A stretch of DNA of 64,000 nucleotides from Xenorhabdus szentirmaii DSM 16338 (GCF_002632585.1 NZ_NIBV01000001.1:476595-540594); one strand, 5' to 3'; counted from the stretch's first letter, positions 8,851 to 62,482 are shown. The notes: a model not told the origin generated them from the letters alone. A program made the numbers and translations.

Positions 8851-10470
8851 TTAACGAAATGGTGTAGCTGGTGTTGTTGATGAAGTTCTTGGGACTTTTT
8901 TCTCTGTTATTGCCGGTGTGGTGATAGGATCTTGTTGATGTAAACCATCAATAGGATGTGTGGGGGTTTGTGAGTAGTCTTGTTTTATCCAGCGAATGAA
9001 GCCGTACGTCTTGATCAATAAGATCACCAGAAAAGGCAGGGCAGTCAAAACTACTGTTGTTTTCATCGTTTCCAACGACGCTTGCGTAAAGAGAATGGAA
9101 AGCGGGATCAGCGTAATCACGACACACCAGAAAAGACGCAGTTTCCGGCATGGGTCCTGACCTTCCCGCAAGTTATGCGTGCAGGTCGCCGCCATGGTAT
9201 AAGCCACCGCATCCATATGCGAAGCCAGGAAAATAACCATGATAAAGAGATAAGCGGCGAGGAAGAATTGGCCTAATGGCAACGCGCTCAGCAATTGATG
9301 AACGGCAGTTTCACCACCCAATGTATTCAATATTTCCGGTACATTGATGGCGCCGGTAATAAATTGGTGCATGGCGTGGCTTTCCAATACGCCAAAGAAG
9401 AACCAGCAACCAAAAGTACTCCCGAGTAACAATGCCCAAATCACTTCCTTAATTTTACGCCCGTGAGAAACCCGGGTTACAAACATGGCAACACCCGGTG
9501 TATAGGAAACCCACCATAACCAGTAGAATACCGTCCAGCTGCGTGTGAATTGGCCATCTCCCATCGGATCGGTAAATAGGCTCATTTGCAGGAAATTCTG
9601 TGTTGTCAGGCCAACCGCATTAATCATATTGTTAATGGTAAATTCCGTAGGCCCGACGATCAGTACCAGCAATGCAAACCCCAAGGCACCCCATCCCACC
9701 ATTTGGCTTAAACGCTGCATTCCTTTATCAATGCCGATATAAGAACTCAGGGAAAAGATCAGGGCGGCCAATAACGTAATTCCCGCCTGAACGGCAAAAT
9801 TATTAGGCGTACCGATAAGTGAAGAAAGCCCGCCACTCAATGTGGCCGCAGTCACCACCAAAGAAATGGTTAACGCGCCTACCGTCGCGATTAAATACGT
9901 CATATCAATCAAACGCCCCCAGAAACCTTGAGGGTTGATTTTGATAATGGCGGAAATAATGCCTGACAAGCTCAGACCTTTATTTTTCCTGACATGGAAA
10001 TGGTAAGCCATAATCAATGAAGCGAGCGCATAAGTTGCCCAAGCACTTAAGCCCCAGTGAAAGAAAGAATAACTGATGCTGTATTCCAGTGCCTTGGGGG
10101 TATGGGGAGGAATATTCAGGCCCGGCATTTGGTAATAGTATGCCCACTCCATAACTCCCCAATATAAAGTTGAGGACCCCAGCCCTGCACAAATAAACAT
10201 ACACAGCCAGGGTGCTGTAGCATATTTTGGTTTTCCTTCACCCAATCGAATATTGCCGTATTTACTTATTGCTAAATAAATGACAAACATCAAAGCAATA
10301 AGAACCAATATTTGAATTGTAGATCCCAGTAAACGCGTCAGCCCATTAAAAATTGAATTCGCAATAATACTTGTCTCTTTAGGAAATAAGCTAAGTGTTA
10401 TTGCTATCACAACGATAAAAACCAAGCTTATGACTATTAAGGGAATATCTTTCTTGGTATTGCTCAACAT
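8851..10470 (-). CDS. yeaV: BCCT-family (betaine/carnitine/choline) transporter.
   Basis: 539 aa polytopic protein with the BCCT signature [19 protein letters not shown]. Confidence 0.85.
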
Positions 10471-10959: not shown

Positions 10960-11010
10960 ATTGCCCCTTTACCCGATCGTGACTGCTCCCCGCCCTGTCG
11001 GGCAAGGGTT
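10960..11010 (-). mobile_element. Short remnant of an IS605-family right end / TnpB 3' terminus.
   Basis: Shares GTGACTGCTCCCCGCC(C/G)CCTGTCGG with the TnpB fragment end at 26784-26815. It translates to ...AGSSH, matching the TnpB C-terminus. Confidence 0.45.
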
Positions 11011-11068
11011 TACAGCGGATTTTGCTAAAATGTCACCTTCGCTTTGATTAAGGATTTTGGGGCACAAC

Positions 11069-12151
11069 TCACGACAAATGCCGAATAATGGCGTCTCCGA
11101 CCTGCTGTGTTGATGCTTTGCCTTTCATGTCAGGCGTCACTGTGCCTTCCGCTATCACCGCTTCAATGGCAGATAAAATATCATTATGGGCATGTTGGTA
11201 ATGTTCATCATTTTCACCCAAGAACTGGATCATCATGGCACCAGACCAAATCATCGCGATGGGGTTGGCAATATTTTTGCCATAAATATCGGGTGCGGAC
11301 CCATGAACAGGTTCAAACAAGGAAGGGAAATCCCTTTCCGGATTCAGATTGGCAGAAGGTGAAAGCCCGATGGTTCCTGTACATGCCGGGCCAAGATCAG
11401 AAAGGATATCGCCGAATAAGTTGGAAGCGACAACAACATCAAACCGTTCCGGATTCAACACAAACCGTGCACAAAGAATATCAATGTGCTGTTTGTCCCA
11501 TTTAATTTCCGGGTACTGTTTTGCCATCTCCTCAACCCGCTCATCCCAGTAAGGCATACTGATCGCAATACCGTTTGATTTAGTGGCGGATGTCAGCAGC
11601 TTGCGGGGACGACTTTGCGCCAGTTCAAAGGCATATTTCAATATGCGATCAACACCACGGCGGGTAAAAACTGACTCTTGGATCACCACTTCATGTTCCG
11701 TGTCTTCATGCAGTCGTCCACCAATCGCTGAATATTCCCCTTCGGTATTCTCCCTGACGACATAAAAATCGATATCTTCCGGTTTCTTATTGGCTAACGG
11801 GCACGGAACTCCCGGTAAAAGACGGACAGGGCGTAAATTGACATATTGCTGAAATTCACGGCGAAACTTCAGCAATGATCCCCAAAGAGAGATATGGTCA
11901 GGCACTTTGTCAGGCCAACCCACCGCACCAAAATAGATCGCATCAAATGCCGTTAACTGTTTAAACCAATCATCAGGCATCATTGTGCCGTGCTTAAGGT
12001 AATAGTCGCAGCTGGCCCATTCGAAATATTCAAACGATAAATGGAGATCCCATTTTTCGGCTACCGCCTGTAATACCCGAATTCCTTCCGGCAAAACTTC
12101 GTGACCAATCCCATCCCCCGGAATTGCAGCAATCTTGAACAGTTTTTTCAT
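11069..12151 (-). CDS. dmlA: D-malate dehydrogenase (decarboxylating) / tartrate dehydrogenase.
   Basis: 360 aa and nearly collinear with E. coli DmlA (YeaU), e.g. AAIPGDGIG...SLWGSLLKFRREF...ATKSNG...NLFGDILSD. Confidence 0.9.
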   Translation of the reverse strand: MKKLFKIAAIPGDGIGHEVLPEGIRVLQAVAEKWDLHLSFEYFEWASCDYYLKHGTMMPDDWFKQLTAFDAIYFGAVGWPDKVPDHISLWGSLLKFRREFQQYVNLRPVRLLPGVPCPLANKKPEDIDFYVVRENTEGEYSAIGGRLHEDTEHEVVIQESVFTRRGVDRILKYAFELAQSRPRKLLTSATKSNGIAISMPYWDERVEEMAKQYPEIKWDKQHIDILCARFVLNPERFDVVVASNLFGDILSDLGPACTGTIGLSPSANLNPERDFPSLFEPVHGSAPDIYGKNIANPIAMIWSGAMMIQFLGENDEHYQHAHNDILSAIEAVIAEGTVTPDMKGKASTQQVGDAIIRHLS

Positions 12152-24262: not shown

Positions 24263-25840
24263 ATGAAACGCAGAGTGGCCATCGGGATTTTGGGAACTAA
24301 ATTAGACAGGCGCGGCAAGAAAGCCAATCGATGGGCAAAATGGCGGCCAACCGTCGGAATGTGCCAGCAGCCGGAATTACCGGTTGATAGGCTGGAACTG
24401 CTTTACCAATCCAATGATTCTGTTTTGGCGGAGAGGGTTAAAGAGGATATTGAGCAGGTGTCACCACAAACAAAAGTGGTGTTGCATGAAATTCAAATTG
24501 AAAATCCATGGGATTTCGAAGAAGTTTATACGGCATTGCTGGATTTTGCCGTTCGCTACCCTTTCGATATCGAAAATGAAGAATATCTGGTCCATATCAC
24601 CACCGGCACCCACGTTGCCCAAATTTGCTGGTTCTTACTCACGGAAGCCCGTTATTTACCAGCTCAATTGCTTCAAACCGCCCCCAATAATCAGGGTGAT
24701 GAGATCCATCCCGAAGGTGTTTACACAATCATCGATTTAGATCTCAGCCGTTATACGACACTGACCAGCCGCTTTCTGCGGGAACAACAGGAGCAGGTGG
24801 CGTTTCTGAAATCAGGCATCGCAACACGCAATGCTAACTTTAACCATTTGATAGACCAAGTTGAACGCGTCGCCTTGCGCTCTGCTGCCCCCATTTTGCT
24901 GACAGGGCCTACGGGAGCGGGCAAATCTTTCCTCGCACGCCGGATCTACCAGTTGCGGCAATCGCGCCATTTAATCAAAGGGCAGTTTGTCGAGGTGAAT
25001 TGCGCTACCCTGCGGGGTGACAATGCCATGTCTACCCTGTTCGGACACGTCAAAGGGGCATTTACGGGCGCCATTCAGCCACGCGCAGGATTGCTCCGTG
25101 AAGCAGATAACGGCATTCTGTTTCTTGACGAAGTGGCTGAACTCGGATTGGATGAACAAGCGATGTTGCTGAAAGCCATTGAAGAAAAACATTTCCTGCC
25201 TTATGGCTCCGACAAGGCGGTTTACAGTGATTTCCAATTAATTGCCGGTACACATCGTGACTTACAGGATTGGGTCGCTCAAGGGAAATTCCGCGAAGAT
25301 TTATATGCCCGCATCAATATGTGGACATATCAACTGCCCGGTCTGGCACAACGCCGTGAAGATATTGAACCCAACATTGATTATGAACTTGCCCGCTATG
25401 CTCAAATGCAGCAAACACAGGTTCGTTTTGATAAAGAAGCAAGAAAAATTTACCTGCATTTTGCCTGCTCTGAACAGGCGCAATGGCGGGGCAACTTTCG
25501 TGAACTCAGCGCTTCCATCACGCGGATGGCAACATTTGCCGAAAATGGGCGCATCAATCAATCTTTGGCAGAAGAAGAAATCACACGTTTGAAAAAAAGT
25601 TGGCATGGTGGGCGGCACTCCGCTTTATTGCCTGACCACCTGCCCGACATTGATCTGTTCGATCGCCAGCAGCTGGAAACTGTGATTACGATCTGCCGAG
25701 AATCCACCAGCTTATCGGAAGCGGGACGCAAACTTTTCGCCGTTTCCCGCCAACATAAAAAACGGCCCAATGATGCCGATAGACTACGCAAGTATCTTGC
25801 CCGATTCGGTCTGGATTGGGAAAGCCTTCAACATGGTTAG
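24263..25840 (+). CDS. rtcR: Sigma54-dependent regulator RtcR (CARF plus AAA+ plus HTH).
   Basis: Collinear with E. coli RtcR, with a GAFTGA motif. It is divergent from the rtcB operon. Confidence 0.9.
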   Translation: MKRRVAIGILGTKLDRRGKKANRWAKWRPTVGMCQQPELPVDRLELLYQSNDSVLAERVKEDIEQVSPQTKVVLHEIQIENPWDFEEVYTALLDFAVRYPFDIENEEYLVHITTGTHVAQICWFLLTEARYLPAQLLQTAPNNQGDEIHPEGVYTIIDLDLSRYTTLTSRFLREQQEQVAFLKSGIATRNANFNHLIDQVERVALRSAAPILLTGPTGAGKSFLARRIYQLRQSRHLIKGQFVEVNCATLRGDNAMSTLFGHVKGAFTGAIQPRAGLLREADNGILFLDEVAELGLDEQAMLLKAIEEKHFLPYGSDKAVYSDFQLIAGTHRDLQDWVAQGKFREDLYARINMWTYQLPGLAQRREDIEPNIDYELARYAQMQQTQVRFDKEARKIYLHFACSEQAQWRGNFRELSASITRMATFAENGRINQSLAEEEITRLKKSWHGGRHSALLPDHLPDIDLFDRQQLETVITICRESTSLSEAGRKLFAVSRQHKKRPNDADRLRKYLARFGLDWESLQHG

Positions 25841-25866
25841 GATAATCACATTATGGAACTGAAACT

Positions 25867-26787
25867 ATGGAACTGAAATTTTTAGGCACCAGCGCCGGCG
25901 TTCCCACTAAAGAGCGTAACGTCACCAGCCTGATCCTCGATTTGCAGGGCACCCGCAATGCATTGTGGATGTTTGATTGCGGGGAAGGAACACAACATCA
26001 GATCCTCCATTCTTCGGTCAAGATCTCCAAACTGGAGAAAATTTTTATCACTCACCTGCACGGGGATCATATCTTTGGTTTGCCCGGTTTGCTGTGCAGC
26101 CGCTCAATGGGCGGCTCTACCGACCCGCTTACCTTATATGGCCCGACCGGCATACGCCAGTTTGTGGAAACTTCACTGCAACTGAGCAGCTCTTTTCTGA
26201 CCTATCCTCTGGACATTACCGAAGTTCAGGCAGGGCCGTTATTTGATGATGGTGAGCTGAAAGTCACGGCTTACGCTTTAAACCATCGCGTGGAATGTTA
26301 TGGCTATCGCATTGAAGAACATGATAAAGCCGGTGCACTGGATACCCAGAAACTGGATCAGGACGCCATCCCCCGTGGCCCGTGGATGCAGGCATTAAAA
26401 CAAGGCGGCACAATCACCCTGGAAGATGGCCGTACCATTTGTGGTAAAGATTATTTAGGTGTGCCGATCCGGGGTAAATCACTGGCCATTTTCGGGGATA
26501 CTGAACCAACGCCGGAAGCCCTGAAAATGGCGGCCAATGTTGATGTGATGGTACATGAAATCACATTGGAAGATGCCTTTGCCGAAAAAGCCAATGAACG
26601 GGGCCATTCCACCACCAAACAGGCCGCAGCACTGGCCCGTGATGCCAAGGCAAAACACTTTATCGCCACCCATATCAGCGGACGTTATGGCGTTGAAGAT
26701 TGCCCGCGGTTATTGGCGGAATGCCGGGAAATATTCCCCAATACCGATCTGGCTAAAGATTTTGCCGTGTTCCCGGTGAGAACGTGA
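25867..26787 (+). CDS. rbn: RNase BN / RNase Z.
   Basis: 306 aa with HLHGDH. It is near-collinear with E. coli ElaC/Rbn. Confidence 0.9.
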
Positions 26788-28277: not shown

Positions 28278-28403
28278 AAGCAAATAAAAACGAATAGTTT
28301 CAACCCTTGGGCGATATAACCCGTTAAAACAAAAATTTCTTCCGGCAAACCTTGCGGTGAATGCTATCGTGAGTATAATGCGCGACGATTTGCTGGGAGA
28401 AAA

Positions 28404-28511
28404 CATGAAAGAGTGCGCTGTCAAGGCCGTTACAAAACATCAAGTTAACGAAACACTGTCTGCTGGCAGCGTGGGCGTATTGTTTTTCCCATTGCTTAAC
28501 CAAACATTTAA
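28404..28511 (+). CDS. pyrL: pyrBI leader peptide.
   Basis: The 35-codon ORF MKECAVKAVTKHQVNETLSAGSVGVLFFPLLNPNI ends immediately before the attenuator hairpin. Confidence 0.7.
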
Positions 28512-28542
28512 AAAGCCCCTCAATTGAGGGGCTTTTTTTTGC
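28512..28542 (+). terminator. pyrBI transcription attenuator.
   Basis: aaaagCCCCTCaattGAGGGGcttttttttg. Confidence 0.85.
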
Positions 28543-29526: not shown

Positions 29527-29539
29527 TAAAAATAAATAG

Positions 29540-29593
29540 CCATTAATATTATGATTGAGGGTAATTACCCTTGGTCATAATATTATTTAATTC
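29540..29593. repeat. Nested palindrome / long hairpin immediately 3' of pyrB.
   Basis: attaATATTATGAttgAGGGTAAttACCCTtggTCATAATATtatt. Confidence 0.6.
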
Positions 29594-29835
29594 AAAGCAT
29601 GTTTTTATTTTTATAAAAATAAAAATTAACAAGATGAAATAATTAAATTATAAATAGTCAATTTAAAATACATGTGTATTTAAAAGCCCTTTTCTTATTT
29701 TAACCTGCCATAAAATTAAGTTATTATCCTGTGTTTCGATAACGTCAGTTTTTCATCGTTATCTTACTCTGTAATTAAAAGCACCCGCCAAATTGATAAA
29801 CATTACGACGATAAATAAATTGATGATATGCACTT

Positions 29836-30349
29836 ATGCAAAGGAAAAAAAATTGCCATCAACAATATGAACATATTTGGGTAGACGAATTTTCATATAG
29901 CTATCAAGGTTCAGAACAGCAAAAGCCGCGGCATTACTTGGCTCATGCTCTGACTCATGCCCAAAATCAACATCAGGCATTGGTTCAGTTATCGGATCAT
30001 ATATTGCATTCGTTACAGGCTGACGAAGGCCAATATGAGAAAATACTCCCTTTTTACAATATCTGGGTACTTGTCGCCATTTGGAAAAACAATTAATCCT
30101 GAACGTTGAAAAAATCTATGGAGAACAACCGATTATTGTGCTGAATACGCAAGATATCAGTGAACCCTTGCCAATTGATACCGGCTCTCTGGAAATAACC
30201 TCGTATCCCTGCCCGCCTTTTACGGGTGAAAACCCTCTTAATCTAAACGCTTCCCCGCCCTGTTCTTATTCAGGGATAAGAAACCCGCTGATTTTGATGC
30301 GCAACTGGAAAGTATTCTGGCGGAGCTGGATAAACAGAAAAATAAATAA
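29836..30349 (+). pseudogene. Hypothetical gene apparently broken by two frameshifts. The three successive frames read ..IWVLVAIWKNN / EKQLILNVEKIYGE.. / ..KKPADFDAQLESILAELDKQKNK.
   Basis: Three consecutive overlapping frames each give protein-like sequence with no recognisable domain. Confidence 0.25.
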
Positions 30350-30364
30350 GGAAAACACACTGCC

Positions 30365-31900
30365 ATGAATTGGTTTAAAAGATTAAAGATCTCCAAATAT
30401 GCCATTCCGGCCAAACCATTTGTCGATAGAAAAATAGAATTGCTGAAAATACCGTTTGCCAAGTACGATCAGGCAGCATTGAAAGGATTTATTCCACTCA
30501 CCGGCATTGATGATGATGTCTGCTCCATACAACGTGCAGGACAGAGTTTACACTATGAATTCCTCTGCTTTTCTCTCGTTATTTTATCTCTGATTTTTGG
30601 CTTATTTTATTATACGGCCTTTGAAGAACAGCAATTGAATCATTATAAAAAAATTAAAGCTCAAGTGACGCTGGCCAAGAAAAAATACGGAGAACACTAT
30701 TATCTTCTGCCGACTTTACCTGAGAATATGGCGTTTGCACGGTATGTCGACGATGAAAAAACACGTTCTTTCTGGACTGAGCTTCATTATCGCTACAGTT
30801 ACTCTGAACATAAACTGACATACCAGATCCTCAATATTTTGATGTTCCTCCTGCTTCTGATCTGTTTTTCGCTTCCTTTTTATCTCTATTATTTCCATCC
30901 GCTTCCCCCACCACTCTTTATTGATCGAAAACGTCAGATTATTTTTACTTGGCATAAAGGAAACGTTTTTGTTTCCCGTTATTCTCAGGTCAATATGTTT
31001 CAGTATGACTACAAAATAGCAGAAACTAAATTAATCACAGCATTAGGGCTATATACTCAGGATAAAAATCAAAAGTTGCTTCAATATCTGTTTCGCCCCA
31101 ATGTGCTCATCTCACTTAATGAGACAGATATCAGAAAGAAGGCACTGGCTCCCTATATTTTTATGGTTCAATACCTTTGCAACGGCAAAGAGGCTATCGC
31201 CGAGAGTTGTTATGGGTTAATTAAACCTTCTCGTTTTTGGCGCGAAGAAAGAAAACCCGGTGATTTTGATAAACAAATGGCCCGTATTCTTGCCGCGTTA
31301 GATGCAGGAGAAACCGCGCCCTCCCCCTCTCTTGCAACAAAATCCTCATCACTATCCGCATATTTGTCCCATACTTATCTCATTGACGCAGAAAAGGCGT
31401 TATTGGAAATGCCCATGAAACCCAAAAATCGGCGGGAATTAAAGGCATTTGCGCCCTTAAAAAGTATCAATGACAGATATTGTGTTCTGCGCAGCCGCCG
31501 GCCTGTCCTGCGATTTTCGTTATTATTTCTGGCGCTGTTGCTGTGTATTCTCGTTTTTAACCACAATGTTGAGAATTACAACCGAACAAAAGGCTGGGAA
31601 GAGCCAGAGATCCTGAAGGACGTGCAAAGCGTAAGAATAGAGTACGGCGATAATTTTCACTTGCGGGATGACCTTTCCCCTTCACTGGACGGGCTTAAAT
31701 TTATCAATGGCCTGGGGCTGAATGTCGATGATCCCCTTCCTGACTGGGCTTATCTCTATTATCGCTTGCATTATCATTATCTCGGTGAAAATACTTACAC
31801 TGTCTCCGACTATGCAGAAAAATTCGGGATGTTTTTGTTTTTTTATTCCTTTTATTCTCTATTTTGGTTTCTTTTGGCGCGAACATTTAACAGTCATTGA
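30365..31900 (+). CDS. Polytopic membrane protein of unknown family, with a 2-TM unit plus an IDRKRQIIFTW...RYSQV module.
   Basis: 511 aa. Hydrophobic helices at about residues 66-90 and 160-185 are followed by a conserved module shared with the downstream paralog. Confidence 0.55.
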   Translation: MNWFKRLKISKYAIPAKPFVDRKIELLKIPFAKYDQAALKGFIPLTGIDDDVCSIQRAGQSLHYEFLCFSLVILSLIFGLFYYTAFEEQQLNHYKKIKAQVTLAKKKYGEHYYLLPTLPENMAFARYVDDEKTRSFWTELHYRYSYSEHKLTYQILNILMFLLLLICFSLPFYLYYFHPLPPPLFIDRKRQIIFTWHKGNVFVSRYSQVNMFQYDYKIAETKLITALGLYTQDKNQKLLQYLFRPNVLISLNETDIRKKALAPYIFMVQYLCNGKEAIAESCYGLIKPSRFWREERKPGDFDKQMARILAALDAGETAPSPSLATKSSSLSAYLSHTYLIDAEKALLEMPMKPKNRRELKAFAPLKSINDRYCVLRSRRPVLRFSLLFLALLLCILVFNHNVENYNRTKGWEEPEILKDVQSVRIEYGDNFHLRDDLSPSLDGLKFINGLGLNVDDPLPDWAYLYYRLHYHYLGENTYTVSDYAEKFGMFLFFYSFYSLFWFLLARTFNSH

Positions 31901-32315
31901 TCGTGAACGGCAAATCATCTTTACCTGGGGCCTCTTTCAGGTTCATGCAACACGTTATTCACAAGTTAAATTTAATTATTGGAATGAACATTTTCCCCGA
32001 CAAATACCCGTTGGGATCAAACTCTTCAACTGTCATATGTCCCCTAAGGCCCTTCAATGGTATGTCGGTCTATTTCCACAATGGCAATGGAAAAAATGGC
32101 GGTGGAGAAAACGCCCTGCGCAAATTGAAATCTGTTCATTTATCGTTAAGTTCTTAGTGCATGGCAAAGATGCCGTCAGCGAAGTCGATTTCGAACGCCC
32201 TGAAGGATATATCTGGTCACATACCAGACAACCGACAGATACAGAATCCACAATTAAAGATACATTGGAAAAACAGGATAGCCATCTGGCAACGGAAGAG
32301 GCGGATAACTCATAG
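31722..32315 (+). CDS. Shorter paralog with two TM helices plus the IDRERQIIFTW...RYSQV module. It overlaps the upstream gene by 179 nt in another frame.
   Basis: 197 aa. The module is conserved with the upstream gene. Confidence 0.5.
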   Translation: MSMIPFLTGLISIIACIIIISVKILTLSPTMQKNSGCFCFFIPFILYFGFFWREHLTVIDRERQIIFTWGLFQVHATRYSQVKFNYWNEHFPRQIPVGIKLFNCHMSPKALQWYVGLFPQWQWKKWRWRKRPAQIEICSFIVKFLVHGKDAVSEVDFERPEGYIWSHTRQPTDTESTIKDTLEKQDSHLATEEADNS

Positions 32316-32410
32316 AAACCGTTTTAGTGCATTCAGAATGAAAATGGTGTCGCTAATCAGCCCGGCTAAGCCGGGCCAGAATGGGTGTTTTTCTGATTAT
32401 TGATTAACCA

Positions 32411-34729
32411 TTAGATAAGGCGAGAAAATTTAGATTTATCCTGTTCAGTGAGAGACAGTTTCACTGGCACAGATTTTGACGTGGGTGTGCCGGTTCCATC
32501 CCCAATACTTTCCATTGGGACTAAAGGGTTCGTTTCAGGGTAGTAAGCGGCGAGGTTCCCACGGGGAATGGAATAAGGCACTAATTTGAAGCCAAACACT
32601 TTACGCGGGACTCCGTCATTCCATATTGTTTCGATATCCACCAAATCACCGGCCTGATAGCCCGATTGTGCAATATCTTCCGGGTTCATAAATAACACTT
32701 CCCGTTGCCCGTAAACCCCACGGTACCGGTCATCCAAACCATAAATGGTGGTGTTGTACTGGTCATGGGAACGCAAGGTCTGCAATGTGAAAGGAACGTC
32801 TGCAAGTGCAATTTGGGGAAATAAGGTGTTCGGCAGAGCCGCATGGCTGAATTCTGCTTTTTGGCTTGCCGTTGCAAAGCGTAATTCCGCCGCCGCATTC
32901 CCGAGATAAAACCCTCCCGCTTGTTCACATTTTTTATTGAAATCATCAAATCCGGGGATGGTTGCTGCAATATGGTCGCGGATTTTATTGTAATCACCCG
33001 CCAGTTCCAGCCAGTTAATCGTTTCGAGATGACCAACCGTTGCGTCAGCAATACCTGCAATAATTGAGGTTTCAGAACGCTGGGTATCAAACAGCGGTTT
33101 ATTCACGCCTTCTGACGCATGAACCATACTGAAAGAGTCTTCTACTGTCACAAATTGTGGGCCGGTAGCCTGAATATCCCGTTCGGTACGCCCCAACGTT
33201 GGCAGGATAAGCGCCCCTTTTTTGCCCGTAACCAGATGACTCCGGTTTAGTTTTGTACTGATATGCACGGTCAGATCGCAATGTTTCAACGCTTCTTCGG
33301 TGCGCGGGCTATCCGGCGCTGCCGCCGCAAGGTTTCCACCCAATGCAATCAACACCTTAACCTCATCACGCAACATCGCACTCAGGGCTTCCACAACGTT
33401 ATGCCCGTGGGCACGGGGAGGTTCGAATCCAAAATGGGCGGCCAAGCTATCCAAGAAAGGCTTGTTGGGTTGTTCATTAATCCCCATCGTCCGATTGCCC
33501 TGCACATTACTGTGACCGCGCACGGGGCAAAGCCCTGCACCGGGTTTCCCCAACTGACCAAACAACAATTGCAAATTGACTATTTCACGCACGGTCGCCA
33601 AAGAGTGTTTATGTTGAGTGATCCCCATTGCCCAAGTGCAAATCACACGCTCTGCGTTCTGGTAAATCGCCGCCGCTTCCCGCAACTGTGTTTCAGACAA
33701 TCCGGATTGAGCCTCAATAAACGACCATTCTGTCTCAGCGACTTCTTGCAAGTAGGCTTCCACACCTTTGGTATAAGTGTTAATAAACTCCCTATCAAAA
33801 ATGCCCGGTTGACCATCAGCCAGCCGTGCATTATGCGTTTCCAGAAGCGCCTTAACCATTCCCCGCACCGCGGCCATATCACCACCTAATTTAGGTTGGT
33901 AGTAGCGATGGCTAATTTCTCCCGCCCTTGAAGTCACCACTTCAAGGGGTTTTTGTGGATCTGCGAAACGTTCCAAACCTCGTTCACGCAATGTATTGAA
34001 GGTCACAATGCGCGCTCCGTGTTCAGCCGCATGTCTCAGGCTATGCAGCATTCGCGGGTGGTTTGTGCCGGGGTTCTGGCCAAAGACAAAAATGGCATCC
34101 GCATGATCGAAATCTTGCAGCCGGATTGTTCCTTTCCCCACCCCCAAGCTTTGTAACATGCCGAAACCGCTGGCTTCATGGCACATGTTGGAACAATCAG
34201 GGAAGTTATTCGTTCCCAGCACGCGGCCAAACAACTGGTACAGCCATGAGGCTTCATTACTGGCTCGGCCAGAAGTATAGAGCTCAAGCTGATCGGGATT
34301 ATCCATCGCATTGATATGGCAGGCGATCAGCGCAAAAGCGTCATCCCAGCTAATCGGCTCATAGTGATCCGTTTGTGGGTTGTAGCTCAACGGCTCAACA
34401 ACCCGCCCTTGATATTCAAGGAAATAATCACTTTGCTGGTAAAGTTTACTGACGCTGTGAGTTGCAAAAAATGTCCGATCAATATAGCGGTGGGTTGCTT
34501 CCCATGTGACCGCCTTAGCGCCATTTTCACAAAAACTGAACAGGCTTTTATTATCATCTCCCCATGCACATCCCGGACAATCAAAGCCTTTGGGCTTGTT
34601 CATGCGCATCAGGTTAACCATATTTTTCAGGGCTTGTTTGCTATCAAAGACAAAGCGGGTTGTTGCCTCCAGTGATCCCCAACCACCAGCCGCTGAGTGG
34701 TAAGGTTTTATTTTGGATTTGAATTTCAT
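32411..34729 (-). CDS. YdeP/FdhF-like molybdopterin oxidoreductase alpha subunit.
   Basis: 772 aa with an N-terminal Cys cluster DCPGCAWGD and molybdopterin oxidoreductase family architecture. Confidence 0.75.
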   Translation of the reverse strand: MKFKSKIKPYHSAAGGWGSLEATTRFVFDSKQALKNMVNLMRMNKPKGFDCPGCAWGDDNKSLFSFCENGAKAVTWEATHRYIDRTFFATHSVSKLYQQSDYFLEYQGRVVEPLSYNPQTDHYEPISWDDAFALIACHINAMDNPDQLELYTSGRASNEASWLYQLFGRVLGTNNFPDCSNMCHEASGFGMLQSLGVGKGTIRLQDFDHADAIFVFGQNPGTNHPRMLHSLRHAAEHGARIVTFNTLRERGLERFADPQKPLEVVTSRAGEISHRYYQPKLGGDMAAVRGMVKALLETHNARLADGQPGIFDREFINTYTKGVEAYLQEVAETEWSFIEAQSGLSETQLREAAAIYQNAERVICTWAMGITQHKHSLATVREIVNLQLLFGQLGKPGAGLCPVRGHSNVQGNRTMGINEQPNKPFLDSLAAHFGFEPPRAHGHNVVEALSAMLRDEVKVLIALGGNLAAAAPDSPRTEEALKHCDLTVHISTKLNRSHLVTGKKGALILPTLGRTERDIQATGPQFVTVEDSFSMVHASEGVNKPLFDTQRSETSIIAGIADATVGHLETINWLELAGDYNKIRDHIAATIPGFDDFNKKCEQAGGFYLGNAAAELRFATASQKAEFSHAALPNTLFPQIALADVPFTLQTLRSHDQYNTTIYGLDDRYRGVYGQREVLFMNPEDIAQSGYQAGDLVDIETIWNDGVPRKVFGFKLVPYSIPRGNLAAYYPETNPLVPMESIGDGTGTPTSKSVPVKLSLTEQDKSKFSRLI

Positions 34730-35226
34730 GAAAATCTCTATTTTTTTATGTCGTCGTCGACACCAAACTGGTCATTATTTATAAATAAACCAATTGGTTA
34801 CAGAAAAACCAATAACGCCGATTTCATCCATTGGCATTGGCGGATGACCACCGCAGCAATCATAGGGGCGAACCAAGCAGCCATGCTTCGCGATAAAATC
34901 AGAAGCCAAACGATGACCACGTCTTGGTAATCATACTCCTATTCGCTTATTGTGGTAGTTATTCCATTGTTATGATGCGAAAAAACCGAACGTTAAGTGT
35001 AATCGTATTTCTGATTCGATTTATCGACATTTTTTGATATCGTTTAATAGTAAAAAAATAATATTATTAACTTCGTTTATATTTTTATATTAAAAAATAA
35101 TATTTAATGAAAATTGAATAACATGGGTATTTAAATTAAATAATATGCAAAAAATAAAGAACCATCACCTTATCCATAATTTATCCTAAACACCCATTTT
35201 AAAAGGCTCAGAATAGAACCTTGATA

Positions 35227-35586
35227 CTATGGCAGCATATTTTCAAAATAAATAGCTTCCGCTTCATATTCCTTTATCAGGCACCCGTTTTTTTCTGCTA
35301 TTTCCGCATCGGTATTGGCGGATTCAATCGTTTCCAGCAAGCATTTCTTCGCTATCATATTATCCCAGCTCGCTTCCAATTCTTTGATAAGCGCACTATT
35401 TTCCGGATTTAGCGTGATTGCATGTGCCACTGATTTGTCCTTCCTGCTCTGCAGGTTTTTCAGCTTGATTTCACTGTGATGATTGATGATTTCAAGCTGT
35501 TCCGCTTCCTTGCCATTAAAGGCAGCATAACTTGTGGATGCAGAAAGAAACAAAGAACTTAGTAACATGATTTTAATTGGATTCAT
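35227..35586 (-). CDS. Secreted DUF1311 (LprI-like) protein.
   Basis: Signal peptide and a two-Cys pattern of about 100 aa. Confidence 0.45.
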   Translation of the reverse strand: MNPIKIMLLSSLFLSASTSYAAFNGKEAEQLEIINHHSEIKLKNLQSRKDKSVAHAITLNPENSALIKELEASWDNMIAKKCLLETIESANTDAEIAEKNGCLIKEYEAEAIYFENMLP

Positions 35587-35789
35587 AGTGTTAAACTTTT
35601 ATCGTCATGTGCAATTTTTTGATATTATCAGGTGCCGATATATCACTGTTTCCTGCATTACCTTCTGCACTATTTCCAAACTGTTCCTGAATTTCAACCC
35701 ATCAAAATAAATTGCATTCAACCTATTTTATAAATTATTTCCTTCCTGATTTTCCTCAAAGATTATCAAAGAAGAAAATAGCGTTATTA

Positions 35790-37010
35790 TCATCCCCCAT
35801 GACTCACAATAAAATAAACAAATGTGCCCACGTAGTTACCAATCACATACCCCACCGTGCCAATCACCATAATCGGGCCAACCAGATTATTCCAGCCACG
35901 GCTGATAGCCATTGCCGCCGCCGTTGTTGGCCCGCCAATATTGGCGTTGCACGCAAGAATATTTTCTTCAAGGCTGAATTTAAATATTTTCCCTGCCGCA
36001 AAGGTCAGCATCAGGTTTATCATGGCAATGACAAACACAAAGCCAAACAGCAGAGGTGCATGGCTGAGGATGGCATGAACGGATGCCGGTATGCCAATCA
36101 CAACAAAAAACATGTAAATGGCATAAGTTCCCAGCTCTTGTGTGCCATTCAGTTTGCTGAATGTTTCTTTAAATATTGAAACGATAATAAACGTCACCGT
36201 GGTCAGGAGCAGGTATTTATCGGTGATCAGGCTGAAAATTAACTCCTGAAAAAGATTATTGGGTTGCCCCAACAGGGCTTTTGACCATGCTGAGAGATGA
36301 AATGACAACGCCACGATAAAGATTGACCATGCCAACGATGATGCTATGTCTTTCAGGGCGATATTTTTGGGCTGCCAATAGGCAGCTGCCATCGTTTGGG
36401 ATTTATCAAATGCGGGGCTATTTTCAACTTCATCTGTATAGGGACTGCCCCAGATATTTCTCGCCACTTTCCAGCCAGATAAGACTATCAGGATAATAAA
36501 ATAACCTGCCATCATAAAATTATCGGCGACGATGGTGGATACCACCATACCTTGGGATGTGTCCAGCTTGGCTGCCATTGCGACGAAGTTAACACCGCCC
36601 CCTGTGTAGGAAGCAGAAATCATGCCGCTGATTTTATCCAATTCAGGAATGTATGCCCTGAACAGGTGGAAAGCGATGATGGCTCCCGTCATGGTGGCAA
36701 TGGAAGAAATCAAAAACAGGATCAGCAGTCGCCCGCTTTCTCTGATAATGCGTTGTAAGTTGGTTTTAAATAACAGTAAAGGGATCGCCAGTGGCAGGAT
36801 ATATTCCCAGACAACATCATAGGCGGGGGCTTCGGCAGGAATGATATGCAGGTTTGAAGCCACAATTGCAATGATCAGGGCAATCACTGAACCCGGAATT
36901 TTAGATGCCCATTTGAAATGCTGTTCAGACAGAATGGCAGCCGCAACGGTCATCATAATAAAGGCCCAGAGCATCAATGAATTGTCGGCAGTGATAAGGG
37001 TGTTGATCAT
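35790..37010 (-). CDS. DUF819-family polytopic membrane protein.
   Basis: 406 aa with ASYTGGGVNFVA and CNANIGGPTTAAA motifs. Confidence 0.6.
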   Translation of the reverse strand: MINTLITADNSLMLWAFIMMTVAAAILSEQHFKWASKIPGSVIALIIAIVASNLHIIPAEAPAYDVVWEYILPLAIPLLLFKTNLQRIIRESGRLLILFLISSIATMTGAIIAFHLFRAYIPELDKISGMISASYTGGGVNFVAMAAKLDTSQGMVVSTIVADNFMMAGYFIILIVLSGWKVARNIWGSPYTDEVENSPAFDKSQTMAAAYWQPKNIALKDIASSLAWSIFIVALSFHLSAWSKALLGQPNNLFQELIFSLITDKYLLLTTVTFIIVSIFKETFSKLNGTQELGTYAIYMFFVVIGIPASVHAILSHAPLLFGFVFVIAMINLMLTFAAGKIFKFSLEENILACNANIGGPTTAAAMAISRGWNNLVGPIMVIGTVGYVIGNYVGTFVYFIVSHGG

Positions 37011-37052
37011 GGGATCTTGCCTAAGATGTTATTTTATCGATTACGCTATCGT

Positions 37053-37781
37053 CTATCGTGCCATGCTCGAGTCTACCGCACCATAAAGAGCCGTCTGATT
37101 TTTATAAAATGCCCATAAAGAATTGCCGTAATCATAATGCCACCATTCTGTCGGGTAATTGCTAAAGCCTGCTTGCGTCATGGCCTGATACAGTAATCGG
37201 CGATATAAGGTTGCCGGCATATTTTTGTCTGGATCGGCTTCTAATGCGACGGTATAAGAGCGCTCACTCACTTCATCAAATTCAGTCCCCAAGTTCAGGG
37301 CATGGCCCGTTTCCCGATCAAAAAGAGTGACATCAACCGCTCCTCCCGTTAAATGAGGGAGAACTTGATTCGCATCCACGGGGGCCGGAGCGACAAATTT
37401 CTGCAACATCCGTTGCTGTTCTTCAGGGGGCAAGCCGGCAAATTGCGCTGCAATATCTGCCTGCGTTTTCTCCTGCAATGCTTGCTGAACTTCCCGGGAG
37501 CGCCAGCCATCCAATATCAATAACCCTAAATGGTCAGGGAGCAGTTGTGATACCAGAGTCAATTTTTCCGCAACACTTTTCCTTACTAAGCCGTGTTCAA
37601 TCGAGCCTTTTATTCCATCCAGAAAATAGACCGGTTTCTGTTTTAACTTTTCCGTATCAGTAATGAAAACTAAAGGTTCATGGCATTCATGAATAGGGAT
37701 TTTATTAATGAGCGACCAGTCAGCATCTTTTTCCGGCACGATTTTTTCTGCGGGATTTTTATCTGTATCAATCTGCTTCAT
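37053..37781 (-). CDS. ddpX: D-alanyl-D-alanine dipeptidase (VanX/DdpX, M15D).
   Basis: DGWRSREVQ, HLTGGAVDV and EWWHY motifs. Confidence 0.8.
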   Translation of the reverse strand: MKQIDTDKNPAEKIVPEKDADWSLINKIPIHECHEPLVFITDTEKLKQKPVYFLDGIKGSIEHGLVRKSVAEKLTLVSQLLPDHLGLLILDGWRSREVQQALQEKTQADIAAQFAGLPPEEQQRMLQKFVAPAPVDANQVLPHLTGGAVDVTLFDRETGHALNLGTEFDEVSERSYTVALEADPDKNMPATLYRRLLYQAMTQAGFSNYPTEWWHYDYGNSLWAFYKNQTALYGAVDSSMAR

Positions 37782-38050
37782 TTTTCAACCTGCTATTTTG
37801 AGAGGTACGATTTGAAACCTGTGAAATAGGGTATCAATCACTATCCAATTCGTTATCGTTATGTTTGAACACGGTACATTTTAAGAAAGATTTTCACAGA
37901 TTAACAACAAAAGCCGATGCCATTAAATTTTATTTAATCAATAGGTTAAATCATCTTTAAAATTAAAAGGTTAATCAGATGAAATGCCAAATGGTCTGTG
38001 ACAGAATAAGGCGTTTTCCTTGATCCTCCTAATATTTGGAATGACACAAC

Positions 38051-38515
38051 ATGACCCAAGATCATCAACTACAAGTAGAAGCCATTAAATGTGGCACCGT
38101 TATCGACCACATTCCAGCTCATGTCGGCTTTAAGTTATTATCGCTGTTCAAACTGACTGAAACAGACCAGCGCATTACCATCGGCCTGAATCTGCCTTCC
38201 AATCATTTGGGCAGAAAGGATCTGATCAAGATTGAAAATACTTTCCTGACGGAACAGCAGGCAAACCAGCTCGCTATATATGCTCCCCATGCCACAATCA
38301 ATAATATTGAAAACTATGTTGTGGTTAATAAGATGCCAATCAATCTGCCAGAATGCATCGACAGTATTCTTGTTTGCCCAAACAGCAACTGCATCAGTCA
38401 CAATGAGCCGGTCAACAGCAGTTTCCGCGTGCTGAAAGCAAAAAATGATGTTGTACTGCTTTGTAAATATTGTGAAAAAGAATTTGATCGCCAAGCCGTT
38501 ATCAAGAACGACTAA
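38051..38515 (+). CDS. pyrI: Aspartate carbamoyltransferase regulatory subunit.
   Basis: Collinear with E. coli PyrI, including the Zn Cys cluster CPNSNCISH...CKYCE. Confidence 0.95.
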
Positions 38516-39288: not shown

Positions 39289-41205
39289 ATGTCATTTTCG
39301 CCTGTGGATAATATATCGAGGAGCTTTACCGTGAATTCACATACATGGCACGATCAGCTAGATCAAGAGATCCGTGGCCTGATCGAACAAAATCATTTTT
39401 CCCTGCTTAATGAAAATGCCAATAAAGACAGTAAAGTCATCCCAACCCAACGCGATTTATTGGCTGGGATCGTCGCCAGACAGTATGCCAAACAGCATAT
39501 GTTGCCCCGTGATGTGGTAATGGCGCATGAAAAGGGAGAAATTCATTATCATGATCTGGATTACGCCCCTTTTTTCCCTATGTTCAACTGCATGCTGATT
39601 GACTTGCAAGGTATGTTAACCCATGGCTTTAAGATGGGTAACGCAGAGATTGAACCGCCCAAATCCATCTCTACTGCGACAGCGGTCACCGCTCAGATCA
39701 TCGCGCAAGTTGCCAGCCATATTTATGGTGGCACAACGATCAATCGCATTGATGAAGTCTTGGCGCCTTTCGTAAAAGCCAGTTATGACAAACATCTGGC
39801 CATTGCCAAAGAGTGGGAAATTGCAGATCAGGCCGCCTACGCAGAAGCCCGAACCGAAAAAGAGTGCTATGACGCTTTTCAGTCTCTGGAATACGAGGTC
39901 AATACACTGCATACCGCCAATGGGCAGACACCATTTGTCACATTTGGCTTCGGGCTGGGCACGTCAAAAGAGTCTCGTCTGATTCAGATTTCTATTCTGC
40001 GCAACCGCATTGCCGGTTTGGGGAAAAACCACAAGACCGCTGTGTTTCCTAAATTGGTTTTCGCCATTCGTGATGGGTTGAATCACCGATTTGGTGATCC
40101 CCACTATGATATTAAATTACTTGCGCTGGAATGTGCCAGTAAGCGGATGTATCCCGATATCCTCAATTATGATCAAGTGGTTAAGGTGACCGGCTCATTT
40201 AAAACGCCAATGGGTTGCCGCAGTTTTCTCGGTGTTTATGAAGAGAATGGTCAGCAATTGCATGAGGGGCGCAATAACTTAGGTGTGATCAGCCTTAATC
40301 TGCCCCGCATTGCGCTCGAAGCCAAAGGTCATGAGGCGAAATTCTGGGCGATTCTGGAGCAGCGTTTGGTGATGGCTAAAAAAGCGCTGATGACAAGAAT
40401 TTCCCGCCTCGAAAAGACGAAGGCTCGTGTTGCACCTATTCTCTATATGGAAGGAGCCTGTGGCGTTCGGCTGAAAGCGGATGACAATATTGCCGGGATT
40501 TTCAAACAGGGCCGTGCCTCTATTTCGTTGGGATATATCGGTATCCATGAAACGATAAATGCGTTATATGGCAACCATCCTCATCTCTTTGATGATGAAC
40601 AACGTCAGCAAAAAGCGCTTTCCATTGTCAAACGGTTACGTGAGGCTGTTGACCAATGGAAACATGAAACCGGCTATGGATTCAGTCTCTACAGTACCCC
40701 AAGTGAAAACTTGTGTGACCGTTTCTGTCGTCTGGATACCGCTGAATTTGGCGTGGTCCAGGGGGTCACGGATAAAGGCTATTACACCAATAGCTTCCAT
40801 TTGGATGTAGAAAAGAAGGTCAATCCCTACGATAAACTGGATTTTGAGGCAAAATATCCGCCACTGGCAAATGGCGGTTTTATCTGTTACGGCGAATACC
40901 CTAATCTGCAACATAATTTAAAAGCATTAGAAGATGTTTGGGATTACAGCTATTCGCGTGTTCCTTACTATGGAACCAATACCCCCATTGATGAGTGTTA
41001 CCAATGTGGTTTTACGGGAGAATTTACTTGTACCAGCAAAGGATTTACCTGCCCTCAATGTGGCAATCATGATCCTGCCCATGTTTCCGTCATCCGCCGT
41101 GTTTGTGGTTACTTGGGCAGCCCTGATGCCCGCCCCTTCAATGCAGGTAAACAGGAAGAAGTAAAACGCCGGGTGAAACATCTCAGGAATGGTCGGATGG
41201 ATTAA
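39289..41205 (+). CDS. nrdD: Anaerobic ribonucleoside-triphosphate reductase (class III) lacking the N-terminal ATP-cone. The real start may be the GTG at 39331.
   Basis: Near-identical to E. coli NrdD from residue about 95 onward, including the Zn ribbon CYQCGF..CPQCG and glycyl radical RVCGYLGSP. No ATP-cone is encoded upstream. Confidence 0.85.
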   Translation: MSFSPVDNISRSFTVNSHTWHDQLDQEIRGLIEQNHFSLLNENANKDSKVIPTQRDLLAGIVARQYAKQHMLPRDVVMAHEKGEIHYHDLDYAPFFPMFNCMLIDLQGMLTHGFKMGNAEIEPPKSISTATAVTAQIIAQVASHIYGGTTINRIDEVLAPFVKASYDKHLAIAKEWEIADQAAYAEARTEKECYDAFQSLEYEVNTLHTANGQTPFVTFGFGLGTSKESRLIQISILRNRIAGLGKNHKTAVFPKLVFAIRDGLNHRFGDPHYDIKLLALECASKRMYPDILNYDQVVKVTGSFKTPMGCRSFLGVYEENGQQLHEGRNNLGVISLNLPRIALEAKGHEAKFWAILEQRLVMAKKALMTRISRLEKTKARVAPILYMEGACGVRLKADDNIAGIFKQGRASISLGYIGIHETINALYGNHPHLFDDEQRQQKALSIVKRLREAVDQWKHETGYGFSLYSTPSENLCDRFCRLDTAEFGVVQGVTDKGYYTNSFHLDVEKKVNPYDKLDFEAKYPPLANGGFICYGEYPNLQHNLKALEDVWDYSYSRVPYYGTNTPIDECYQCGFTGEFTCTSKGFTCPQCGNHDPAHVSVIRRVCGYLGSPDARPFNAGKQEEVKRRVKHLRNGRMD

Positions 41206-62446: not shown

Positions 62447-62447
62447 A

Positions 62448-62482
62448 AAAGGGGCCCGATTAGGCCCCTTTCCACTGAAACT
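62448..62482 (-). terminator. rpsO rho-independent terminator.
   Basis: The minus strand reads AAAGGGGCCTAATCGGGCCCCTTTTCTTC. Confidence 0.8.

Follow-up and report, generated by a model that had tools for sequence, protein, structure and literature searches.

In Escherichia coli the catalytic and regulatory subunits of aspartate transcarbamoylase (ATCase) are encoded by pyrB and pyrI downstream of the pyrL attenuator, a regulatory region whose layout is the same as that of the elements found upstream of pyrB in Xenorhabdus szentirmaii. The catalytic trimers of the enzyme are active without PyrI, which is dispensable for catalysis, and in Methanocaldococcus jannaschii and some other archaea pyrB and pyrI are unlinked, their chains nevertheless assembling into a regulated holoenzyme. 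For part of the accessory genes discussed below the nearest described system is the VasW (DUF4123)-VasX-TsiV2 effector/immunity module of Vibrio cholerae, and orphan immunity arrays are likewise known. Here we analyse the pyrBI locus in a 64,000-nt stretch of the genome of X. szentirmaii DSM 16338 (NZ_NIBV01000001.1, 476595-540594, the window from here on), where 8,524 nt lie between the pyrB stop and the pyrI start, both genes being on the + strand. Exact protein matches point to this strain as the origin of the DNA.

The region has been described in this genus before. In the passages of their paper drawn on here, Cordes and Binford (2018, BMC Evol Biol 18:194, Fig. 8; PMC6299612) treat pyrB-cbbBc as a recombination hot spot, locate a PLD toxin gene that X. 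mauleonii gained by lateral transfer 'within the pyrBI operon', with pyrB on one side and cbbBc on the other, describe the site as empty or occupied by highly diverse modules in 23 Xenorhabdus species, mention prophage genes, and suggest that the gene set of X. innexi may be ancestral. Both the split of the operon and the character of the interval as a hot spot are in the literature on Xenorhabdus already.

We consider it likely that the interval is an old, multi-layered hot spot for accessory genes in what was once the pyrBI intercistronic spacer, and not the product of one recent insertion. As a first layer, a cytoplasmic M15 D-Ala-D-Ala-type dipeptidase and a DUF819 transporter would have been acquired horizontally before Xenorhabdus and Photorhabdus parted, inserting in the opposite orientation after the stop codon of pyrB and ahead of the ribosome-binding site of pyrI. 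An oxidoreductase of the FdhF/YdeP family would have been added as a second layer throughout Xenorhabdus, and a third would consist of two slots that turn over between species, slot A between the DUF819 and YdeP-family genes and slot B between the YdeP-family gene and pyrB. In several species slot B would carry genes for a DUF4123 adaptor and a pore-forming toxin of the VasX family, together with tandem genes for membrane-bound immunity proteins; X. szentirmaii would have lost the toxin through a 5.3-kb deletion, which left the adaptor as a dead stub and the candidate immunity genes as orphans, with further frameshifts in DSM 16338. Under this model pyrB keeps its attenuator, which is sensitive to uridine triphosphate, its transcript would end at an RNA hairpin of its own, and pyrI would most likely be transcribed from its own promoter, located in a block of ~110 nt that stays attached to it whatever lies upstream. 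The balance of PyrB and PyrI would then be set by two independent expression signals (promoter and ribosome-binding-site strength), not by translational coupling. Separate expression of the subunits would be tolerable because the catalytic trimers need no PyrI for activity, and excess regulatory dimers are presumably harmless, which is an assumption of ours.

The pyrB-pyrI interval in Xenorhabdus and Photorhabdus

Profile matches identify both subunit genes (Table 1) and bear out the split that a sequence-only reading of the window had proposed, with pyrB ending at 29526 and pyrI starting at 38051; four opposite-strand genes, encoding the YdeP-family oxidoreductase, a 119-aa protein, the DUF819 protein and the M15 protein, separate the two. 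The comparison set took one genome from each species and comprised 80 loci with PyrB relatives, in which pyrI was then sought. The gap between the genes is 9-73 nt in 72 of the 80, which cover gamma- and betaproteobacteria and include the Morganellaceae Providencia and Arsenophonus, and Xenorhabdus and Photorhabdus alone have large gaps, which measure 2,363 and 2,545 nt in the latter. The separation seen in X. szentirmaii is exceptional among related loci. On the far side of pyrI the neighbourhood is conventional: tblastn detects ridA in the loci of Xenorhabdus and Photorhabdus (79-96% identity) and in most other Enterobacterales loci (81-88%), and its Ribonuc_L-PSP domain was called in the loci of relatives. 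Both ends of the interval are AT-rich, as the sequence-only reading had noted, with a GC fraction of 0.236 at 29527-29835 and 0.320 at 37782-38050 vs 0.436 for the entire window. Two symbiont loci show other routes of pyrBI operon erosion: the secondary endosymbiont of Ctenarytaina eucalypti has a pyrB-pyrI gap of 440 nt (locus L033, 10919-11357), and in Ca. Pantoea edessiphila (locus L073) no pyrI was found next to pyrB, ridA following directly.

Further loci were fetched with DUF819 and PyrI homologues as anchors. The operon is split in all ten Xenorhabdus species examined, namely X. szentirmaii (3 strains), X. littoralis, X. bovienii (2 strains), X. innexi, X. griffiniae, Xenorhabdus sp. 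CP147734, X. doucetiae, X. cabanillasii, X. khoisanae and X. anantnagensis: every locus of the genus that reaches both genes is split, and elsewhere the same intervening genes adjoin pyrB or pyrI (the X. anantnagensis locus reaches only a conserved hairpin after pyrB). The order pyrI/M15/DUF819/slot A/YdeP/slot B/pyrB is found in five species with both ends and in three more as far as the DNA reaches; X. doucetiae lacks the M15-DUF819 pair, other genes taking its place. The YdeP-family proteins of the other Xenorhabdus species examined share 86-92% identity with that of the window. Slot A is empty in some species and in others contains a Metallophos gene, a DUF2867 gene, a four-gene Metallophos-Vut_1-HTH set or, in X. 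szentirmaii, a gene for an LprI-like protein. Slot B can likewise be empty, or hold an HTH-ThiF-MFS set, a type VI secretion (T6SS) VasX cassette (riddled with IS1 in X. griffiniae) or phage tail genes, and it differs between the two X. bovienii strains. From strain to strain and from species to species the same conserved flanks thus enclose different genes, as is typical of a hot spot, and the X. szentirmaii interval reads as a probable mosaic of at least three layers of different age, overlaid by a strain-level deletion and by frameshifts.

The phage tail genes belong to X. cabanillasii (locus L095, 1-1106), in which Phage_sheath_1 and Phage_T4_gp19 matches (tail sheath and tube) lie beyond the YdeP-family gene on its pyrB-ward side; they fit the 'prophage genes' of the 2018 paper, at least as its passages used here describe them, and could be part of a tailocin or PVC-like element. 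Signs of site-specific integration were looked for in the window itself. Profile and Pfam searches gave no integrase-like open reading frame (ORF) among its gene calls, no tRNA lies between 20000 and 45000, Rfam recognises no known RNA family in the pyrB-pyrI interval, and the search for flanking direct repeats or att sites returned only short AT-rich repeats at chance level. One att-like pair, 29577-29628 vs 35058-35102, was set aside as unconvincing, being made of 17-28-nt matches (~50 nt in total, 79-88% identity, a 7-nt gap) of low complexity. Its copies lie after the pyrB hairpin and in the spacer between the genes for the YdeP-family and 119-aa proteins, where they would bracket the T6SS remnant and the YdeP-family gene; chance is the likely origin.

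The oldest layer would be the M15-DUF819 pair. The M15 protein carries the motifs HLTGGAVD and EWWH, and it is predicted to be cytoplasmic, as neither a signal peptide nor a transmembrane (TM) segment was detected in it. It had been called a VanX-type D-Ala-D-Ala dipeptidase, of which the M15 family holds (E=2e-20) and the finer class does not: the scores against the NCBIfam equivalogs are 66 vs a cut-off of 176 for DdpX and 51 vs 320 for VanX, so that membership is at the family level only. The call of a DUF819 membrane protein stands as made (PF05684, E=2e-96), and this family is placed among the transporters of the CPA/AT superfamily in the part of PMC8396727 used here.

The same pair marks the locus in Photorhabdus. 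P. caribbeanensis and P. noenieputensis have a DUF819 gene on the - strand between pyrB and pyrI, its product 67-68% identical to the window protein, with a decayed M15 fragment beside it in the Xenorhabdus order and no YdeP-family gene. In P. heterorhabditis (loci L093 and L094, 7860-8000) the pyrB-pyrI gap is just 141 nt, the leader hairpin of pyrI described below is kept, and the spacer equals the pyrB-proximal ~70 nt plus the pyrI-proximal ~75 nt that flank the insert of P. caribbeanensis. This gap is best read as a secondary, clean loss of the insert by which the operon would have been rejoined by deletion. In a neighbour-joining (NJ) tree of DUF819 proteins the Xenorhabdus and Photorhabdus sequences form sister clades, with X. 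innexi basal, which are jointly sister to Psychrobacter-type sequences. Identity is 73-75% between the two genera and 64-67% to Psychrobacter, which together with metagenomic proteins supplies the closest outside relatives among the best 120 of 3,915 DUF819 matches.

In Psychrobacter, too, an M15 gene (50% identical) adjoins the DUF819 gene (64%), which argues that the pair is a transferable two-gene module. It is also all that the interval in the window shares with a Psychrobacter contig (locus L084, 7286-13221; Logan SRR19240303), and an en-bloc Psychrobacter-like donor was rejected: the oxidoreductase there is just 39% identical to the YdeP-family protein, and the VasX and immunity genes show no similarity. 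This contig has a VasX_N toxin gene with three DUF6708-type genes beside its M15-DUF819 pair and a molybdopterin oxidoreductase gene with FdhD on the opposite side, neighbours of the same kind that are not orthologous and may reflect coincidence or a shared hot-spot tendency.

The original insertion can be placed within the intercistronic spacer by comparison with the Providencia junction, which reads TGA-GGAGGA-N7-ATG: the PyrB of Xenorhabdus still ends in a tail, NEDVVI.., that corresponds to NKELAI in the outgroup, and GGAGG is still on the pyrI side. Taken together, one acquisition of the M15-DUF819 pair before the divergence of Xenorhabdus and Photorhabdus appears to be the most economical history. 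If instead the pair had been gained independently in the two genera, or exchanged between them via the pyrB and pyrI flanks, the split would be younger than both. Such convergence at a recombinogenic locus, where different species, and even different strains of X. bovienii, carry different cargo, would account for the lack of an insert in P. heterorhabditis and for the lower identity of DUF819 between the genera (68-75%) when set beside PyrB (88%) and PyrI (84%). We nevertheless regard it as distinctly unlikely, since both genera share the orientation, the order and the right-hand junction down to the GGAGG-hairpin leader, the DUF819 proteins of each genus form a deep clade of their own and these clades are sisters, the decay of the M15 gene in Photorhabdus argues for long residence, and adding the insert's two flanks gives exactly the gap of P. 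heterorhabditis.

The candidate type VI secretion remnant in slot B

In X. khoisanae pyrB is followed by genes for a 436-aa protein with a DUF4123 domain (residues 161-283, E=1e-15), a 1174-aa VasX_N protein, two membrane proteins of 319 and 326 aa that are 84% identical to each other, and a further fragment. X. innexi and X. doucetiae have the same adaptor-toxin-membrane-protein set, slot B of X. griffiniae has a VasX gene with IS1 copies downstream, and the VasX_N toxins of these relatives measure 1171-1177 aa. In the window the toxin gene is absent, the segment that holds it in X. khoisanae being deleted. Similarity to the X. khoisanae locus (L002) begins in the spacer after pyrB, where blastn matches window 29531-29583 and 29617-29765 to 10963-11014 and 11101-11248, and continues at 29811-30243 into the 5' part of the adaptor gene (11429-11862, 75% nucleotide identity). 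The encoded stub is 73-77% identical to the X. khoisanae protein, and its ~136 retained codons end before the DUF4123 domain. From there the alignment jumps to the end of an immunity-type gene across a junction defined at the nucleotide level, ~5.3 kb of X. khoisanae, i.e. the remainder of the DUF4123 gene, the VasX toxin gene and most of the first immunity gene, being missing.

The ORF created by this fusion of adaptor and immunity gene is a single one of 177-187 aa in most other X. szentirmaii strains and of 111 aa in sp. 42; DSM 16338 has, in addition, a frameshift in it at a T-run near 30050. The sequence-only reading had called it a frameshifted hypothetical gene; the frameshift is real, and the gene consists of a 5' DUF4123 remnant joined to the 3' end of a gene of the immunity type. 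What was said to follow, a pair of paralogous polytopic membrane proteins, is better described as two tandem units of ~320 aa with 2 TM segments each, the second of them frameshifted. These units form one ORF of 649 aa in X. szentirmaii strain M, which a frameshift near 31835 breaks in DSM 16338 into ORFs 30365-31900 (511 aa) and 31722-32315 (197 aa). The 511-aa sequence is listed under CDL82825.1, PHM34087.1 and PHM42810.1, three accessions that suggest separate assemblies and make a sequencing error unlikely. An internal repeat (30281-30331 vs 31253-31303, spacing 972) has one copy in the truncated gene end and the other in the tandem array.

Sequence identity ties the tandem units at 31-35% to the 319-, 326- and 327-aa proteins encoded directly after VasX in X. 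khoisanae, X. innexi and X. doucetiae. Their position and copy-number behaviour suggest that they are candidate orphan VasX immunity genes, and slot B of X. szentirmaii is, as far as the alignments can tell, probably a toxin-deleted remnant of a module of the X. innexi type.

Expression signals of pyrB and pyrI

Upstream of pyrB the leader ORF, the pause-type hairpin and the attenuator are all present (Table 1). The pyrL-pyrB attenuation layout is intact, and its control would now reach pyrB only; in the physical sense, with pyrL intact ahead of pyrB and the long gap behind it, the claim that pyrI is uncoupled from the attenuator is upheld.

The sequence-only reading had also pointed to a long palindrome at the 3' end of pyrB, which is indeed there (29544-29585), and had raised the question of whether it is the target or the scar of an insertion. 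Folded as RNA of the + strand it reaches -22.3 kcal/mol (z=-5.1, 0/200 shuffles as stable); in - strand RNA, C.A mismatches arise at three positions and the energy is -16 kcal/mol (z -2.7). The hairpin is kept in X. anantnagensis, in X. khoisanae and in one X. bovienii strain with different slot B cargo, its variable stem positions toggle between G.U and A.U in such a way that pairing is preserved only in the pyrB sense-strand RNA, and in species with an empty slot B other terminator-like hairpins replace it after pyrB. Conservation beside pyrB whatever cargo follows, together with substitutions that respect pairing on the sense strand only, leads us to conclude that it is neither target nor scar. 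The palindrome is probably the 3' hairpin of the pyrB transcript, acting as a terminator or a stabiliser, with termination itself the predicted part.

At the other end of the interval, pyrI is under strong purifying selection. All the Xenorhabdus and Photorhabdus loci seen have an intact pyrI ORF, the four zinc-site cysteines (CxxxxC...CxxC) are conserved, and the ratio of nonsynonymous to synonymous substitution (dN/dS) is 0.04-0.09 in Xenorhabdus/Photorhabdus pairs, X. szentirmaii included, vs 0.016-0.19 in pairs with intact operons; a value within the intact-operon range indicates that pyrI is maintained. In the 269-nt spacer between the divergent M15 and pyrI genes, identity across 8 Xenorhabdus species is 84-85% within the ~110-nt block that runs from RTGAAA up to the start codon and 45-48% further upstream, and the flanking genes have synonymous sites close to saturation (dS 0.5-1.8). 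Even with other, same-strand genes as its upstream neighbours, pyrI of X. doucetiae retains the block. Its 5' edge holds a candidate sigma-70 promoter (consensus RTGAAA-17-TGnCARAAT), which in the window consists of ATGAAA (37979-37984), a 17-nt spacer and TGnCAGAAT (37999-38007); Photorhabdus has TAAAAT at the aligned position. We infer that this edge is pyrI's own promoter. RutR-like and CRP-like half-sites at 37985-38003 were dropped, as they are not conserved in other species.

Downstream of the promoter follow GGAGGAGG, the hairpin GAATACC-N5-GGTATTC, whose stem is almost unchanged between species and whose loop is longer in Photorhabdus, ~10 nt and the ATG. A 23-nt leader element that spans the entire hairpin and the greater part of the GGAGG is kept in 7/7 other Xenorhabdus species aligned and in 3/3 Photorhabdus, and is missing from X. 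szentirmaii alone (window 38036-38042), where only a weak GGA is left before the start codon. The three X. szentirmaii strains are identical in the region upstream of pyrI except for one base, and a literature search found no transcription start site data set for this species. A start-like ATGACACAAC or a degenerate copy of it lies 10 nt upstream of pyrI in all species; an overlapping upstream ORF of 15 codons that would begin at this ATG was discarded, being absent in X. innexi, X. cabanillasii and Photorhabdus. In X. innexi (locus L086, ~8886-8900) and X. cabanillasii (locus L095, 10001-10030) a tandem duplication of ~15 nt after the pyrI start (ATGACCCAAGACCAT-TCACTGCAAGATCAT) adds 5 residues to give a 159-aa PyrI.

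A bolder view of this leader is that the split lineage evolved a dedicated pyrI module, in which a promoter is combined with a 7-8-bp hairpin (GAAUACC-loop-GGUAUUC) that follows a strong GGAGG, precedes the start codon and serves as a 'split' ribosome-binding site or as a switch independent of pyrL; X. szentirmaii would then be a natural mutant with an altered PyrB:PyrI stoichiometry and weaker allosteric control. We judge this unlikely, and what can be read from the DNA appears to give nothing beyond ordinary promoter capture after an operon split. Either way, the block upstream of pyrI is a testable handle on how the subunit balance of a classic allosteric enzyme is kept after coupling is lost, and nature supplies variants in the 23-nt leader deletion of X. 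szentirmaii and the 141-nt gap of P. heterorhabditis.

If pyrI were instead drifting towards loss or already silent, ATCase would be left as unregulated catalytic trimers and the leader loss of X. szentirmaii would be a step of decay. That PyrI is dispensable for catalysis, that some symbionts, such as Ca. Pantoea edessiphila, have lost pyrI, and that the missing 23 nt held the only strong Shine-Dalgarno sequence upstream of the gene would all suit this idea, which we find very unlikely in view of the intact ORF with its four cysteines in every locus of both genera and of a dN/dS, X. szentirmaii pairs included, as low as in intact-operon genomes.

Expression of pyrI mainly by read-through from the pyrL-pyrB promoter, so that attenuation would govern both subunits, seems to us extremely improbable. 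Polymerase would have to cross 8.5 kb, of which ~4.6 kb is antisense to the four convergent genes, and pass several further terminator-like sites, and the selectively conserved block next to pyrI argues for local signals; termination at the pyrB hairpin could leak given the nature of its tail, and co-transcription becomes plausible again in P. heterorhabditis with its short gap.

The single recent genomic island of ~8.5 kb that the sequence-only reading had put forward, splitting the operon in this strain or species with the palindrome as its target or scar, would agree with the AT-rich flanks, the heterogeneous GC of the interval and the adjacency of the two genes in outgroups, and retains next to no credibility now that relatives are seen to share the split, the conserved pyrI block, the YdeP-family gene and, save X. 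doucetiae, the M15-DUF819 pair (DUF819 recurring in two Photorhabdus species), that the parts of the interval differ in breadth of distribution, that integrase, tRNA and convincing flanking repeats are missing, that the palindrome keeps its place and its sense-strand pairing beside different cargo, and that the published hot spot spans 23 species in the passages of PMC6299612 used here. The sequence-only reading had itself named a split common to the closest relatives, with a conserved pyrI promoter, as the finding that would speak for an ancestral arrangement.

A layered hot spot with separately expressed subunits therefore remains the reading we prefer, and several observations count against parts of it. 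For the history, P. heterorhabditis could in principle represent the pre-insertion state; the single acquisition is parsimony on a small NJ tree, and inter-genus transfer by homologous recombination is a possible substitute for it; and Psychrobacter is best taken as the closest relative seen among the best 120 of 3,915 matches, a possible donor at most. For slot B, the immunity-type proteins have no Pfam match even at E<=10, and their proposed kinship with DUF6708 proteins, which stand beside VasX in Psychrobacter, was rejected (hhalign probability 1.6%). For expression, the candidate pyrI promoter agrees with the consensus at only 4/6 + 4/6 positions with a TG motif and was not listed by a simple promoter scan, the whole pyrI leader folds no better than shuffles (z -2.4 to +0.5), and the tail of the hairpin after pyrB is only moderately U-rich, with no classical U-tract. 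The small leader hairpin, for its part, is conserved without covariation.

Other features of the window and comparison with known systems

The features of the locus are collected in Table 1. The gene calls of the sequence-only reading held for most of the interval at the family level, those needing correction being the frameshifted hypothetical gene, the two paralogous polytopic proteins and the DUF1311 protein. The oxidoreductase, which had been called YdeP-like, falls in the FdhF/YdeP subfamily (TIGR01701) and scores 801 bits vs a cut-off of 1473, i.e. below it, for the YdeP equivalog NF007406. The 119-aa protein of slot A was named DUF1311, an assignment that Pfam did not reproduce at E<=1; its sole support is the UniRef name, LprI N-terminal domain-containing. 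Its N-terminus resembles a signal peptide, and its 90%-identity cluster contains sequences of the X. szentirmaii group only.

Table 1. Features of the pyrB-pyrI locus of X. szentirmaii DSM 16338 (positions in the window)
Feature	Position	Strand	Basis or remark
TATAAT promoter element	28374-28379	+	direct reading of sequence
pyrL leader ORF, 40 codons	28405-28527	+	direct reading of sequence
Pause-type, terminator-like hairpin	28457-28477, U-rich stretch to 28487	+	terminator scan
Attenuator hairpin GCCCCTC-AAT-TGAGGGGC (GCCCCTCAATTGAGGGGC) + T8 run	28515-28540	+	overlaps pyrL end
pyrB, ATCase catalytic subunit, 313 aa	28585-29526	+	TIGR00670 396 bits vs cut-off 237, E=9e-119; Pfam OTCace_N + OTCace
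AT-rich intergenic region from pyrB to T6SS remnant, GC 0.24	29527-29835	+	homologous to X. khoisanae pyrB-DUF4123 spacer
RNA hairpin 3' of pyrB, 19 uninterrupted pairs, 4-nt loop, then UAUUUAAUU	29544-29585	+	flagged by terminator scan
Pseudogene, 5' ~136 codons of DUF4123 adaptor gene	29836-30243	+	frameshift near T-run ~30050, ORFs 29836-30096 + 30081-30368
Deletion junction and final ~105-110 nt of immunity-type gene	30244-30349	+	window 30245-30349 vs L002 17120-17233, 76%
Two tandem units of ~320 aa, 2 TM segments each, candidate VasX immunity	30365-32315	+	
FdhF/YdeP-family molybdopterin oxidoreductase, 772 aa ('cbbBc' in 2018 paper)	32411-34729	-	TIGR01701 905 bits vs cut-off 582
Variable slot A, AT-rich spacers + 119-aa secreted LprI-like protein (35227-35586)	34730-35789	-	
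DUF819 membrane protein, 406 aa	35790-37010	-	PF05684 E=2e-96
M15 (VanX/DdpX-like) metallopeptidase, 242 aa, paired with DUF819	37053-37781	-	PF01427 E=2e-20
Conserved pyrI upstream block	37976-38050	+	alignments of Xenorhabdus/Photorhabdus
pyrI, ATCase regulatory subunit, 154 aa, intact	38051-38515	+	TIGR00240 199 bits vs cut-off 149, E=4e-59; PF01948 + PF02748 (PyrI and PyrI_C, allosteric and zinc domains)
ridA, right-hand neighbour of pyrI as in E. coli	38663-39049	+	

Elsewhere in the window, 24263-26787 encodes an RtcR-type sigma-54 activator (525 aa) and then a 306-aa protein with a metallo-beta-lactamase fold; homologues of these genes (loci L090 and L091) have Pfam matches that include Anti-Pycsar_Apyc1, and no rtcB or rtcA was noticed beside the pair in the window. 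Downstream of ridA lies an NrdD homologue (39289-41205), which in the Xenorhabdus loci is 632-671 aa long with no ATP-cone Pfam match; the Photorhabdus protein (locus L093, 9195-11333) has 712 aa and an ATP-cone, a difference that could stem from the start-codon call or from a real N-terminal loss. Rfam finds the SraG small RNA at 62309-62473 (+, 104 bits) and the ribosomal protein S15 leader at 62702-62819 (-, 89 bits), in the usual rpsO-pnp region.

The hot spot of the 2018 paper is at the same locus in the same genus. Its modules are not named as T6SS VasX cassettes in the passages of PMC6299612 used here, which are also without Photorhabdus, the M15-DUF819 core and pyrI expression, and the slot B remnant is resolved in the present analysis; a literature search found no paper linking VasX to this Xenorhabdus locus. 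Beyond those passages, our results indicate that Photorhabdus shares the disruption, which probably started from the acquisition of a single dipeptidase-transporter pair, and that the possibly ancestral slot B module is a VasX cassette, decayed in X. szentirmaii, which bears on competition among nematode symbionts.

With VasW-VasX-TsiV2 of V. cholerae the Xenorhabdus relatives share the order of DUF4123 adaptor, VasX_N toxin and tandem small membrane proteins, and the window, which retains just the adaptor stub and the downstream membrane-protein genes, follows the pattern of an orphan immunity locus. It differs from the V. cholerae module in having no toxin, and its candidate immunity proteins have no Pfam family and are not DUF6708-like. 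The M15 protein resembles DdpX and VanX (MEROPS M15D) in its Pfam Peptidase_M15 domain, its HxxGxAxD and ExxH zinc/catalytic motifs and its predicted cytoplasmic location, but is paired with a DUF819 transporter and not with the Ddp ABC transporter or van genes.

Finally, the locus is like E. coli pyrLBI in its pyrL leader ORF, its pause hairpin, its GC-rich attenuator with T8 and the order and orientation of pyrB, pyrI and ridA. It differs in that the gap of ~15 nt in E. coli has become 8.5 kb with four opposite-strand genes, and in that pyrB has its own 3' hairpin and pyrI its own conserved upstream block. Separate transcription units encode the two subunits where archaeal pyrB and pyrI are unlinked, but there in another domain of life and with an independent history, whereas the separation in Xenorhabdus arose within a lineage whose relatives all retain the coupled operon.

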